This document shows positions 57,961 through 64,000 of a DNA stretch of 64,000 nucleotides, piece after piece. The notes under the pieces are model-generated. The model did no database searches. It had not been told where the DNA came from and saw nothing but the letters and a program-made list of their open reading frames with translations. The stretch is from the NCBI GenBank assembly GCA_027923505.1, contig BROI01000002.1, positions 1,860,001 through 1,924,000 on the forward strand. The letters run 5' to 3'. The stretch's first letter is position 1. Each line of letters begins with the position of its first letter. A program made the translations under genes and the position numbers. Source of the DNA: Mayamaea pseudoterrestris (taxonomy: Eukaryota).

Positions 57961-58764
57961 CTAGAGGATTTCGAGGTTGTCATAGGTCACCTGCAACGAC
58001 TCGTCGCCACTATCCGATTTCATATCAAGCTGATCCTTCCTGAGCTTCTCAACTACTTTTTGAAGCAACAAAGAATCCTTTGGACTGGCCATGACATACT
58101 CCGATGGCTTGTCGCCAAGGCAGCGCAGACAAAACGGAGAAGGACGTTTGTCAGAGTAAAAATGAATATTCTTTGCTAATATAAAAAGCATGTTGCCATT
58201 CACATCAATCGATATACTTAAGATATCAGCAAATGGAAACAAATATCCTAGTCCTGAAAATTGAAAGAGAAAAGTAAAATCGAATGAGAGATGAGAGGGG
58301 CAGCAAGCAGTTGGCAAGTGGGACGCCATGACGACTAAGAACTTACGATCTTCATCGAAGTGCACTACCCCTTCAGCGCTGATAGCAGTATGAGGAAGGG
58401 TGCTTCGGCATTTCTTGATGATTTCACTGATAAAGCCCGACCCCGAAATGATAATCAAGAAGCCTGTTAACGCGCTGATCAGCAGAGACAAGAGGATGCC
58501 AGCAGCATACATGACGACAGCGCCAACGAGCAAAAAGTTCATAACTTTTCGCTTGACAAAGTTGAAGTGCTCTGCATCGTGATCAAATACAGCAATAATG
58601 CTGTGTTTGCTGTCGTTGAAGAACTCATCTTGCCAAACATGCGTTGCAAGTTCCGGAACAATCACTTGCGCTCGAGCAGCCGAAACTATGATTGTTACAT
58701 TCTCCTTCTTGCTGGTGTCATCGCCGTGAACTGGCACGAGGCAATTTATACTACTAGCTCCCAT
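57961..58764 (-). CDS. Small two-TM protein of unknown function; probable in-frame intron 58346-58254
   Basis: 267-aa ORF with two hydrophobic helices and an internal 93-nt GTAAG...TTTTCAG segment. Confidence 0.55.
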   Translation of the reverse strand: MGASSINCLVPVHGDDTSKKENVTIIVSAARAQVIVPELATHVWQDEFFNDSKHSIIAVFDHDAEHFNFVKRKVMNFLLVGAVVMYAAGILLSLLISALTGFLIIISGSGFISEIIKKCRSTLPHTAISAEGVVHFDEDRKFLVVMASHLPTACCPSHLSFDFTFLFQFSGLGYLFPFADILSISIDVNGNMLFILAKNIHFYSDKRPSPFCLRCLGDKPSEYVMASPKDSLLLQKVVEKLRKDQLDMKSDSGDESLQVTYDNLEIL

Positions 58765-58860
58765 TGTTTAAGGATATTGTCCACGTTGACGTCTTGCCTT
58801 TTTACTTGTGATGTCGAAGAGGAGTAAAAACGACGAGAATAAGCTCGCTTTCTGCACATT

Positions 58861-59071
58861 TGTTGGATCTAGAATATATCTTGCGCGCCCTTGAAGCGAC
58901 ACTAATGATTAAGCAGAACAGAGTCAATAAAACCACTTTACTTATTTTCTCCAAGAAGTGATCGTCCTCGATCCACTCCTTCGGTTGCCGCTTACCGCGC
59001 TTACTTAAATGTGACCGTCTTCGTGACGTCACCGCTGCCGCTTCGGTTTGGGTTCTCATCCATGCTCAACA
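58861..59071 (-). repeat. 3' LTR (211 bp) of the Copia element
   Basis: TGTTG...CAACA termini, preceded on the minus strand by a purine-rich AAAGGAGTG tract (PPT-like). Matches 63872-64000. Confidence 0.95.
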
Positions 59072-62000
59072 CACTCCTTTGGGCCGAGTAGTACTTACTG
59101 CTCGAGGCCAGATTCATAACCAGGTTGCGGAGCTTGCCAAACTGGGCTCCCTGCAATGGTTTCGTGAAGAAATCCGCGACCATGTCTCCGGTCGGACAAT
59201 GCTCAATGTTGACTTCACCAGCTGCCACGCGATCTTTCACAAAGAAGTACCGAACATTCATGTGTCGCGTGCGCTTTGTACTTGAGCTTCTGCCATTCTT
59301 TTCCAACAGCATTGAACTCATATTGTCTTGATACAATTTCGTGTCTTTGACCCCGAAACCTTGCGCCTTCAGAAAATATCCTGTCCACAGCAACTGCGGT
59401 AGCACATCATGAACTCCCACAACTTCGCTCTCCGTCGAGCTTCTTGTTACCAACTTCTGTTTAGCCGACGTACTGTACACTGATCCTTGGCCAAGTGTCA
59501 TTGTTCCACCAGTGTGACCCTTCATGTCTGGGTGCACCGCGTACGACGCATCCACCCACCACTGGACTATCCCGACTGGTCCGCCTTCAGCGTCAACACC
59601 ATGTCCACGCTTCCGCGTAAATATTTAATCACTCTTGCAGCCTTCTTATAGTCGTCTTCGTCAGGCTGCTGCAGCCTCGTGCTCAAGAAAGAAATCGCTG
59701 TGCGAATATCCGGTCGCGCTCGCTGACTCAGATACAGACACTGCATCACAATCGTCACAAAATGCTGCTTCTTCGCTTCGCTCAACATGACAGGATTTTC
59801 CGATATCTGAAACAAGTGACTGGCTGCCGGAGTAGCTGCCGTTCCATCCATGTCGTCTGGCGCATGATGCAGGATGTTCTTCACATAGTCAACCATGTTG
59901 ATTGCTACTTCTCCAGGCTTAGTATAGTCCAATACCATGCCGAGGTAGTCGTGCACTTTTCCGCGTGACTTATTCATTGGAGTCTCCTTGCCAAACTCCT
60001 CATCCATCTGCGCGATGAACTCATCCACTACGCTCACGTCGACGTGCGAAATCTTCAAATCGTCCACGTGCCATCCCACGGTGATTTGCTTCCCATTGAC
60101 AATCTTGTTGCACACACACGGATCGTACGGGTTCTTCTCGAAGCCCCACTCAAGCAATTTTGCGGACAACTTCTCCCAGAATAGTCGCGCTGCTCGAAGC
60201 GTACCATAAAGCGCCATGAGTAATTCAACATACATGACTTTCTCGCCATTCTCCATTGTGACGCAAGGCTCGTACATCTCGCGATCAATTTCCAACAGTA
60301 GCTCCACCATCTTCCCAGTGAAACGAACGTGCACCAACTCATCCATTTCCGCTTGCATGAAAGCACCCGGTACATCAACCACAGCAACCTCGCGCCCTTC
60401 CATAGCGTCAATGATAGCTGTCAGAAAGATGGCCTCTGTCGCTATCGTTGGAGATGCTGCGTCTTCCTTTGCAGTGTATGCTCGTTGCTTGCGTCCATCC
60501 GCGCATCCGCGTCCCTTCACAGTCCCGCATCTCTTGCGCTTGAGAAACATCAAATACGCCAGAGCGTCCTTGCGCTGCTGCGGAGTCAGAGTGCATTGGG
60601 GGACTGCCTTCATGACGTGCCTGTCGTGTAGCTGCTGCATTTCCTTGCGCACTGCCTCCACTCCAGCATCGCCAAAAGCCTTTAAACCTTGTCGCATATT
60701 CATCTGTGCCGTGACGAGTGGCTCCGACACTTCCTCTGCAGCGTCGAGCGTGAACAAATGAGCGAACGAGCGAGGTTTGCGCGCACGCAGGCCATACCGA
60801 CCAGTGCGTGGGCCATAGCGCGCATCGAAATCCTCTTCGTCTGCAGCAGCTGGCACTCCTTCAATTTCGCCTTCATCGGGCACTCCTTCAATTTCGCCAT
60901 CATCCACGGCTGGCGCGTCGTCAAGTTCGCCGTCAATGGCCTCACCATCCTCGTCGTTCGGCACTCCTTCGATTGCGCCGTCAGCACCATCGTCGTCGTC
61001 GTCGTCGTCATCGGTCGCATTCACTCCTTCGCTTCCGCCGGCAGAGTCGTCGTCACCGCGAGAAGCGTCGTCATCATAATCAGAGTCATCATCATCCTCG
61101 GCGTCATCTTCGTGCCACATGACTGGCTCAGCAGCCTCCGCAACACGGTGGCGGTCCATGAACACGATGCCCGGATTGGCCTTCTGTTGACGAGCGAGAC
61201 GATGCACGCGCTCAATGACATCATCAGGCATGGGCAAAGGCGTAGCGTGCCCACGATTCAGAACTTTGCCCGAAGACAAACTGAGGAAATAAAACCCACC
61301 CTGCACATTACCAGTCGGGCGCAGAGCCAGCGCACCGATCGTGCGCGCCTGCATGTCATTGCTGTGCGACTCATGCGTTTGCACATACTGACCAAATTCA
61401 TACTTGCAATGCCGATTAAAGTCAACTGTCTGACCAGTCACAATAGTGCGTGGACTGAGATCCTTCGAAATGCCACGCTCGTTCGGAAACGCATTCAACC
61501 AAAACACGGCAGACTTCGTCATTTCGATAACCAAGCGTGCCGGCACGTGCTTAAATGGCAACGTGTTGTATGTCGCGCGCACCCGTTCTTTCACGACACG
61601 GATAAAACGTTCAATTTCGCCAACGTGTTCATCCTCAGATGTCGCATTGAGCGCCACTCCGAGATCAGCCAACGCGCCAAGCATTGGAGCGAACTCCCCA
61701 TCCATCAGAGCCGCGACGACACGGAACCCACCGCGTGCGTAAATCTTCAACACAGACTCGATTGCCTTCAACATAACCGGAAGCGTACGGTTTTGAATCA
61801 CCTCAACCGTAGCAAAACGAATGCTGCGGGAGAACGTCACCAACATAGGGACTTTGTTGATATACATGATGTCAGCACAAAGAGTAACGTCTCGATAGCG
61901 ACTCATGATAGCCGGTGGAAGCTGCTCAACAATCGCAGGCTTCACCAGATGCGACGCGCGACGCGTCGTCTTTCCTTTAACGAGACAACATCCGGTCCAA

Positions 62001-63844
62001 AGATGTGCTCAACAGCCAGGATGTCGGCCTTCGTCACAGGACAGTTCGGCAACTGATTGCTAGTAACGCTGCGCAGGTAATCCTTGAGGCTTGGCCGTCC
62101 AATTTTGAGTTGCAGTTCCTCAGCTCTAACAGCGCGTAAATAGTCATCATTGGTGTAGTTAGTACGGTTATCGTCTACCGTAGTCAACATCGCCACTCCA
62201 TCCTTGACATCGCTGCGCTTGCCCTTCGAAAAGCTCTCGCAAACATACAGCCCAGAGTCAGTCTCGACAAACTCGCTGCTTACCATCCGGCTTCTCCACA
62301 ACGAACATTGGACGATCCACGCCGTGCATGAGATACTCCACGGTAAACTTCTTGCGGACTTGCGCCAAACTCAAAATGTTCGCCAGTCCCTGCGGATACC
62401 ACCACACCGGACCATAGCCCTCCAGGTCGCCCATCATGTTCGTCCTTACTGTACCAGCGTTGCACTTGATCACCATCCACGTTGGCACCGGGCGAATGTT
62501 CGTCAGCATCTTGGCGTTGCAGAACAGATCCACTGTCGACTGATTGTCCAAGAGCACAGCCTTCTTCGAGATGTTCACCTTCGGCGGCTGCGCGAACATG
62601 TATCCGACCTCATCGTCGTCATCGCTTTCTTCCTCGCTACCCAGCGTGAAGTGCTGCGCCCCACTAGCCTCTGCAGCCGGCGCACTCTCCGTAGACTCCG
62701 TTCTCGTAGGACAGTCTCGCTGCACATGACCAACCTGTTGACAGGTCCAGCATCTGGGAGGGTCACGCGCTGTACCAGTCGTGTGAAACGCCACGCCCTC
62801 GTTCGTTGGCAACGTGGCTTCTCCATCCGCATGCTCACGACGCTGCATGATGTTGTATGCATCGTGGATCGTCAACGGGAAGTTGTCGTGCCCGTCGAGG
62901 TAGCAGTTGCGCAAGTGCTTGCAATACCCAGCGTATTCGCCCGTTGCGCCACGCACGAAAAGCATCGCAAGCTCGAGCTCTTCGGCGGCCTTGATATCCT
63001 CCTTGTTCGCCTTGTTACGATTGTCATCCTTGGCAATGTTCAACGCCACAATCTCGTTGTGCATCGTGACGCCAACCGCCTTCGCCACGTCTGCCAGCGT
63101 GACCATGCTTTCGTAATATTTCTGCAGGCTTTCGCGCGCTCCTTGAGTACGTCCGAACAACTCAGCTTGAATGTCCACGACTTGATCCACAAGTTTGCAG
63201 CGCCCTTCGTACGTATGCGAGATCTCCTTGATAATCGCCAGCAACTTAATTCCGTCCGTGTCCTCCTCGGCGTCTCGGAACTTGGCGTGCGACTTGACAC
63301 GATCCTTCATACGCTCCGTGCATTGTCCATGCAACACGGCGTAGAGACCAGCGAGGAAGTCGGAGTATACACGCACGCGCTCGACATGCTCTTTCTTGTC
63401 GGCCTTGTATTCCTCGAGCATTATGGACCAGTCCGAGTCCGTCGTGTCGGCATCCTTCGTTGGACGTGCAGGCTCGTCAGGAATCTCCAGTTCCACGTTG
63501 CGCATGCCCTTGAGCAGCTCCTTGGTATATTTCTTGTAGGAGCGCCCGACGAAAGTGATGATCTCGTTCGTCGTACGGATGAATCCATCGGGATCGCGCG
63601 AACCGTTATAGTCGTAGATGAATCCAGCGAGCGTCGGCTCGCTTCCTTGGAAATTTCCACTCGGCGCACGACTCGGTCCGTTGAGTCTGTTACCATTGCC
63701 TTGATTCCCGGAACGATTCCCAGCACGATTCCCACGACGATAATGACGGTTGCGTCGGTTTCCTTCGCTTGCTGGCGGAGCGGGAGGTGCACCTCCACCG
63801 CTCGACGCCGCTCCTGTCGTCGGAGTATTGCTCGTCGAAGACAT
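59001..63844 (-). CDS. Copia gag-pol polyprotein, split by three single-base frameshifts (~62275, ~61975, ~59571)
   Basis: ORFs 62258-63844, 61942-62301, 59567-61945 and 59001-59555 join into one polyprotein if one base is restored at each junction. The stop codon lies inside the 3' LTR. Confidence 0.9.
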
Positions 63845-63871
63845 GTCTTTTCACTCGCTTCTTGGAGAAAA

Positions 63872-64000
63872 TGTTGGATCTAGAATATATCTTGCGCGCC
63901 CTTGAAGCGACACTAATGATTAAGCAGAACAGAGTCAATAAAACCACTTTACTTATTTTCTCCAAGAAGTGATCGTCCTCGATCCACTCCTTCGGTTGCC
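63872..64000 (-). repeat. 5' LTR of the Copia element (partial)
   Basis: Base-for-base identical to 58861-58989. Confidence 0.95.

Follow-up and report, generated by a model that had tools for sequence, protein, structure and literature searches.

The 64-kb stretch of Mayamaea pseudoterrestris DNA analysed here, referred to below as the window, holds a single copy of a long terminal repeat (LTR) retrotransposon, which lies on the minus strand. Its coding sequence identifies it as an element of the Copia type (RVT_2) from a pennate diatom. The sequence that adjoins its 5' LTR is complementary to a segment inside the LTR itself. In self-primed reverse transcription, the transcript loops back on itself, and its 5' end pairs with the sequence just downstream of the 5' LTR (PMC5006619, PMC5445492). 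The diatom element most likely primes minus-strand DNA synthesis with its own RNA in a similar way to Tf1 of Schizosaccharomyces pombe, a reading to which we assign a probability of roughly 0.8.

Leader and element in the window

The 5' LTR ends at position 63872, reading ...GATCCAACA, and is followed directly by TTTTCTCCAAGAAG at 63871-63858. The exact complement of this sequence, CTTCTTGGAGAAAA, is located in the LTR at 63969-63956 and is repeated at 58958-58945 in the 3' LTR. The last LTR base, A 63872, pairs in addition with T 63955; the complementarity is thereby perfect over 15 nt (63872-63858 against 63969-63955), and it amounts to 17/18 (94%) over 63855-63872 against 63955-63972. The two segments are called the inner and the outer arm below. 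The outer arm is directly preceded by TCA (63972-63970), the gag ATG is found at 63844-63842, 27 nt past the LTR, and no tRNA-type site (TGG) follows the 5' LTR in the window element. An earlier sequence-only reading of the window had described the LTR end, the adjoining site, the closeness of the gag ATG, the lack of TGG and the position of the TCA, all of which agreed with the coordinates on checking; the 14-bp match that it gave for the LTR-internal complement was likewise recovered and turned out to be one base pair longer.

For the 14-mer with up to two mismatches, 0.67 occurrences are expected in the whole window, and the three exact matches are those described above. Folding of the RNA from 63969 to 63858 indicated that the arm helix closes a structured domain with a minimum free energy of -30.7 kcal/mol (z -3.38), a value as low as which was reached by 0/200 shuffles. 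No tRNA gene was detected in the window and no Rfam match in 63700-64000.

With respect to its general architecture (Table 1), the element shows the Ty1/copia traits of TG...CA LTR ends, a polypurine tract and a gag zinc knuckle (PF00098). The 5' LTR is cut by the end of the window, and the full 211 bp would begin 82 nt past that end; the start of the 3' LTR was set by the contigs of DNA run X6, which match to 59071/59072 and then diverge. The match to PF07727 RVT_2 has an E-value of 7.8e-17 and 62.1 bits against a cut-off of 31.6. For the C-terminal open reading frame (ORF) of pol, presumed to encode RNase H, no Pfam match was found, and an integrase was detected neither by Pfam (E up to 1) nor by a profile search of PDB sequences. 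About 600 amino acids separate the CCHC knuckle from RVT_2 and only about 280 follow the reverse transcriptase. The closest protein to the central pol ORF is a hypothetical protein of the pennate diatom M. pseudoterrestris, with 98% identity, and the other named relatives come from Nitzschia, Fistulifera and Fragilaria. The pol ORF extends 71 nt into the 3' LTR (59001-59071), so that its last codons and the stop (59003-59001) are U3 sequence. Degenerate 27-nt and 9-nt direct repeats at 60847-61109 encode an acidic linker rich in Asp and Glu, which separates the presumed integrase part from the reverse transcriptase.

Table 1. Positions of the retrotransposon's parts in the window
Feature	Positions	Strand	Remark
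5' LTR, 3'-most 129 nt only	63872..64000	-	direct repeat with 58861-58989, 100% identical
TCA, initiator-like motif; predicted +1 is the next base, C63969	63970..63972	-	inference
Outer arm CTTCTTGGAGAAAAT, predicted self-primer and predicted first 15 nt of the transcript	63955..63969	-	
Putative R-U5 segment between the arms, predicted internal hairpins	63873..63954	-	predicted fold
Inner arm ATTTTCTCCAAGAAG, putative primer-binding site; first base is the last LTR base	63858..63872	-	
gag (CCHC zinc knuckle, PF00098) and downstream part up to the frame break in the window copy	62258..63844	-	
Central pol ORF, Copia-type reverse transcriptase	59567..61945	-	PF07727 RVT_2
C-terminal pol ORF, presumed RNase H; in the window copy a 1-nt frame break lies between it and the central ORF	59001..59555	-	
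Polypurine tract AAAGGAGTG, abutting the 3' LTR	59072..59080	-	
3' LTR, 211 bp, TGTTG...CAACA, with second outer-arm copy at 58958-58944	58861..59071	-	

The window copy was compared with the dominant contig of four DNA runs and was found to be without a G at 59573, a T at 61975 and a CT at 62271. These are three frame-breaking indels, and the gag-pol frame is broken twice. Restoring the missing letters would give a single long ORF, as in the relatives of the element; the window copy may be a decayed copy or may carry indel errors of the assembly. The element (internal region plus one LTR copy) was obtained as one contig in 2 of the 4 DNA runs, while a third run covers it in pieces, and no difference at either arm is present among the contig-versus-window differences listed. 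In run X6, the element contigs are about 25 times deeper than the flank contigs, a depth that serves as a rough hint of many copies and not as a copy number. The flank by the 3' LTR (58500-58860) is represented in the same run by two versions of approximately equal depth with many differences, which may be two haplotypes or strains.

The pairing in related elements

A profile of 61 polyproteins yielded 79 metagenome loci with 39-68% amino acid identity in the best segment, and these were scanned in three ways. The first scan was blind and recorded perfect inverted repeats of at least 11 nt in the 56 loci of at least 3 kb; the second was directed at split cases, in which no outer arm exists outside the 3' LTR copy; the third was relaxed, being anchored on CAAC with G:U allowed, and covered all 79 loci. 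Taken together, they showed perfect pairing of 14-17 nt in the homologous place in 41/79 loci. In four loci the inner arm follows a truncated 5' LTR and the outer arm is confined to the copy of the 3' LTR, as is expected of a primer borne by the LTR. Two further loci hold decayed versions, namely L034 (15 bp with two G:U pairs, LTRs 92.9% alike) and L050 (1-nt bulge), the former being the only copy, an old one, that the relaxed search added. None of the related loci ends in poly(A), and hence none can be read as a transcript; in the viral contig collection no relative was found.

The window element and the 41 loci with perfect pairing make up a set of 42 elements, on which the following counts are based. 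They contain 34 distinct arm sequences, all of them complementary, with lengths of 14 nt (13 elements), 15 nt (19), 16 nt (7) and 17 nt (3). The inner arm begins at the last LTR base (...CAAC/A, the slash marking its start) in 28/42 and right after ...AACA in 13/42, with one exception; TGG after the LTR occurs in 0/42. The arms lie about 85-105 nt apart (about 27-53 nt in a subgroup), whereas the length of U3 varies between 54 and 358 nt. In 31/42, the purine tract and the beginning of the LTR (AGGAGTG/TGTTG; motif RGRGTG/YGTTG, the slash marking the boundary) are recognizable upstream of the outer arm.

These counts bear on the nature of the primer. It could be supposed that a host tRNA, or a half or fragment of one, anneals to the site, as is the case in copia, Ty5, Osser and Bianca, and that the complement in the LTR is coincidental; half-tRNA priming is a known non-canonical mode of Ty1/copia elements, and those four share with the diatom element both the superfamily and a non-canonical site without TGG (PMC6317226). 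Their site, however, matches the conserved interior of a tRNA, while the diatom site varies by family and matches its own LTR. This excludes a conserved host tRNA as the primer common to all: the site differs between families and is matched only by the LTR of the same element, and conserved tRNAs cannot follow the 34 different sites of the relatives. With the absence of TGG after the LTR, and with the chance of a 15-nt self-complement being negligible, such a tRNA-based explanation is very improbable.

Sister families differ by paired changes, for example L012 and L014 or L018 and L029. On an alignment of 27 leaders, RNAalifold predicted the arm helix only, with changes on both sides in 14/14 pairs. 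In these leaders 98.4% of the cells were paired, as compared with 58.7% in shuffles (0/500 reach the observed value) and 37-53% with a slid partner, although the 27 leaders were chosen for having the repeat and the 98.4% is partly a result of that construction. As an unselected control, 387,205 nt of related elements were searched, and 45 perfect repeats of at least 13 nt (loop 20-200) were obtained, 38 of which are the arm pairing; twenty block shuffles of the same 387,205 nt gave 0-3. Carriers of the pairing are distributed over every major clade of a quick reverse transcriptase tree with 59 rows and a midpoint root, a quick search from which 20/79 loci without a stop-free reverse transcriptase match of at least 300 amino acids were left out. 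The pairing is conserved throughout the clade with changed sequence, and the 34 arm variants and 14/14 pairs suggest that it has been kept by compensatory change. The comparison of related elements for covariation, which had been put forward together with the sequence-only reading, came out in its favour in this way, the pairing being kept in 41/79 loci.

A chance inverted repeat, or an assembly artefact of the window copy, has nothing to recommend it beyond its a priori possibility and is hardly credible. This explanation was rejected on three grounds: the arms are the same in the DNA-run contigs, as far as the listed differences go, and the element assembled as a single contig in two of the runs; the pairing recurs in 41 related loci; and shuffling produced no more than three such repeats in 387 kb.

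Between the arms, two covarying hairpins that tolerate G:U were predicted by single-sequence folds and by a consensus fold of 14 leaders; since the alignment of the loops by MAFFT is poor, the evidence for these inner hairpins comes from the 14-leader subset and the single-sequence folds. G:U pairs make up 0/402 pairs of the arm helix versus 82/668 (12%) of the inner predicted helices, a comparison that has to be read with the selection of the leaders in mind.

Some loci of the survey deviate from the simple element structure. Tandem arrays, in which two elements share one LTR, are present at L019:7240-16237, L037:4500-10706 and L043:7791-13679, and their long direct repeats take in the LTR, the primer site and the start of gag. 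At L016:180-505, a cluster of 15-22-nt perfect inverted repeats lies upstream of a pol fragment and is unrelated to the leader pairing.

Predicted start of transcription

In Phaeodactylum, the context of transcription start sites was described as CAY+1A, and TCAH+1W was proposed as an initiator-like consensus; each of them places +1 on the base that follows CA (Kadono et al. 2015, PMC4686930). Among the 42 elements, CA directly precedes the outer arm in 34, and in another 5 the pairing begins at the A of TCA. TCAHW, the published diatom motif, is matched by 29/34 distinct elements. The +1 predicted in this way is the first paired base in 27/33; in 4 it falls one base into the arm and in 2 one base ahead of it.

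A conserved initiator-like motif, (C)TCA, is located at the outer edge of the pairing, and since the predicted +1 coincides with the first paired base, the complementarity ends where the transcript is predicted to begin, as in Tf1. In the window, the outer arm is predicted from this motif to be the very 5' end of the transcript, with +1 at 63969. The sequence-only reading had pointed to an initiator-like TCA near 63970, and the fit to TCAH+1W, which places the predicted +1 at 63969, speaks for it. It had also named an AT-rich ATTTAAGTAA box upstream. This box can be read in the copy of the 3' LTR at 59010-59001, where it holds the pol stop codon and stands 43-52 nt upstream of the complement (-52 to -43); it lies outside the part of the 5' LTR that is contained in the window, and it is not conserved.

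Proposed self-priming and its alternatives

The place and the form of the inner arm argue for its use in priming. The 3' end of a primer must anneal directly 3' of U5, which is where the inner arm sits. As in the Tf1 type, the LTR is adjoined by a sequence that can pair with a segment of that LTR, over 15/15 nt in the window and 14-17 nt in the 41 loci, and a site complementary to a tRNA appears to be lacking, judged by the absence of TGG (42/42) and by the variation of the site between families. The proposal of self-priming made in the sequence-only reading gains support from the recurrence of the pairing in the same place in 41/79 loci and from the 34 arm sequences, which are always complementary.

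On this reading, C63969, the base next to TCA in the LTR, would be the start of transcription. The RNA would then fold back over the structured R-U5 of about 82 nt so that its first 15 nt pair with 63872-63858, after which the RNase H of the element would cut the RNA at the inner end of the duplex. The freed 3' OH would be extended through U5 and R to give strong-stop DNA, and later plus-strand synthesis would copy the primer back into the primer site. We infer the transcription start, the cleavage and the priming itself, and the pairing may be formed within one RNA or between two packaged RNAs. In Tf1, the primer has a length of 11 nt, as compared with the 14-17 nt of the diatom arms, and it is freed by an RNase H cut.

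If the site were rewritten in each cycle by the copying of the primer, the arms would be expected to stay perfectly Watson-Crick while drifting between families. The arm helix, free of G:U, fits a site that is copied from the primer each cycle and not merely kept by selection. At slightly less than even odds, we would extend this to the wider proposition that an old clade of diatom Copia elements replicates without a host tRNA, with the capped 5' end of the transcript, begun at the diatom initiator, acting as primer, the site being rewritten in each cycle and the arms evolving in concert, which would yield Watson-Crick pairs free of G:U and rapid drift between families.

Several points weigh against self-priming. 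Pairing is missing in 35/79 loci and is ambiguous in L078. Seven of the loci without pairing were inspected (L001, L008, L047, L049, L053, L060, L070) and turned out to lack a 5' leader or to have one that is truncated or rearranged, L047 and L060 keeping an arm-like segment after CTCA in the 3' LTR; the remaining ones were assessed by tblastn, which gave no gag N-terminus. Among the 79 loci no case was found of an LTR and an intact LTR-gag junction without the pairing, but which loci count as evaluable was judged post hoc. No TATA-like box at a fixed distance is conserved in the 34 relatives. If transcription began upstream, the arm would be internal, in which case cleavage followed by priming would still be possible and the parallel with Tf1 would be less close. 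Finally, packaging or translation could also be the function of a conserved helix in this position.

The last point leads to the likeliest of the alternatives, according to which the arm helix is a structural RNA element under selection, with a role in packaging, dimerisation, translation control or genome cyclisation, and another primer is used. It agrees with the two covarying hairpins in the domain closed by the arm helix and with the better folding of the window leader than of its shuffles (z -3.38), and long-range pairings at the 5' end occur in other retroelements. On the other hand, the 3' arm is found exactly at the LTR boundary in 41/42, where the 3' end of a primer must sit, and between the LTR and gag, where 13 nt are left in the window, there is no other candidate primer site. 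A helix maintained by selection only should tolerate G:U, which the inner hairpins do, as opposed to the 0/402 observed (subject to the selection of leaders mentioned above), and the outer edge of the helix coincides with the initiator-like motif. We regard the structural alternative as unlikely on balance, though it deserves more weight than priming by a tRNA.

The proposed priming by the element's own RNA has parallels in several groups. Self-priming has been predicted for the Tf1/sushi and Tcn1 groups, and among Ty1/copia elements for Houba and Osr-1 of the TAR lineage of plants (Neumann 2019, PMC6317226). With Tf1/Tf2 of S. pombe, Tf1/sushi and Tcn1, all of Ty3/gypsy, the diatom element appears to share the lack of a tRNA site, a site adjoining the LTR that is complementary to the predicted 5' end of the element's own transcript, and a structured RNA between the two arms. 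It differs from the Tf1 group in its Copia-type reverse transcriptase (RVT_2), i.e. it belongs to the other superfamily. In Tf1 the mechanism was proven by genetics and biochemistry, whereas for the diatom element it is predicted from sequence. The sequence-only reading had contrasted the self-priming of Tf1/Tf2 with Copia elements that normally use a tRNA or half-tRNA; the first half of this background stands and the second is incomplete, since self-priming of TAR had already been predicted (PMC6317226). Going by that source, the diatom element would not be the first Copia case of self-priming. Like the TAR lineage (Houba, Osr-1), it is a member of the Copia superfamily for which self-priming is predicted from sequence (PMC6317226), and the two differ in that the hosts of TAR are land plants. 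In the fungal GalEa elements, also Copia, a 'conserved hairpin site' replaces the primer site, for which the authors report that no complementary LTR sequence was found (PMC5445492). GalEa resembles the diatom element in being a Copia element without a tRNA site and with a conserved structure at the expected position; it forms a local palindrome and hairpin, unlike the diatom site, the partner of which lies in the LTR.

The CoDi elements (Maumus 2009, PMC2806351) share the diatom host and the Copia-type reverse transcriptase with the window element, and a search of the main text of that paper for the terms revealed no discussion of primer sites or tRNA. In searches of openly accessible literature, no paper was found that links diatom or CoDi elements with self-priming. 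The observation itself is confirmed and its interpretation is supported by the sequence comparisons, which point to a new diatom lineage of a known type of mechanism.

To our knowledge, self-priming has been proven only for Tf1; the other cases, in a few Gypsy groups and in one Copia lineage of plants, are predictions. The present case would extend self-primed reverse transcription to a large lineage of diatom Copia elements, in which the natural covariation is unusually clear (34 arm variants). It leads to a testable prediction, namely that the transcript begins with the base following TCA and that strong-stop cDNA carries an element RNA of 14-17 nt. The difference between a G:U-free helix and neighbouring hairpins that bear G:U could be used as a sequence signature that separates copied primer sites from selected RNA helices. 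Annotation pipelines that demand a primer site of the tRNA type are likely to lose such elements; in one diatom genome paper, candidates from LTRharvest were filtered by LTRdigest for a polypurine tract and a primer binding site (PMC7466962). If the reading is true, independence from host tRNAs could ease the spread between diatom species.

Two minor observations concern the primer site itself. L008:3780-3930 holds a truncated or recombined copy, in which just the initial 9 nt of the primer site stand between an LTR and unrelated sequence. The base after the primer site (63857 in the window) is C in 30/42 elements, A in 10 and G in 2, and the frequent C could be a copy of the cap guanosine or the result of an unrelated constraint.
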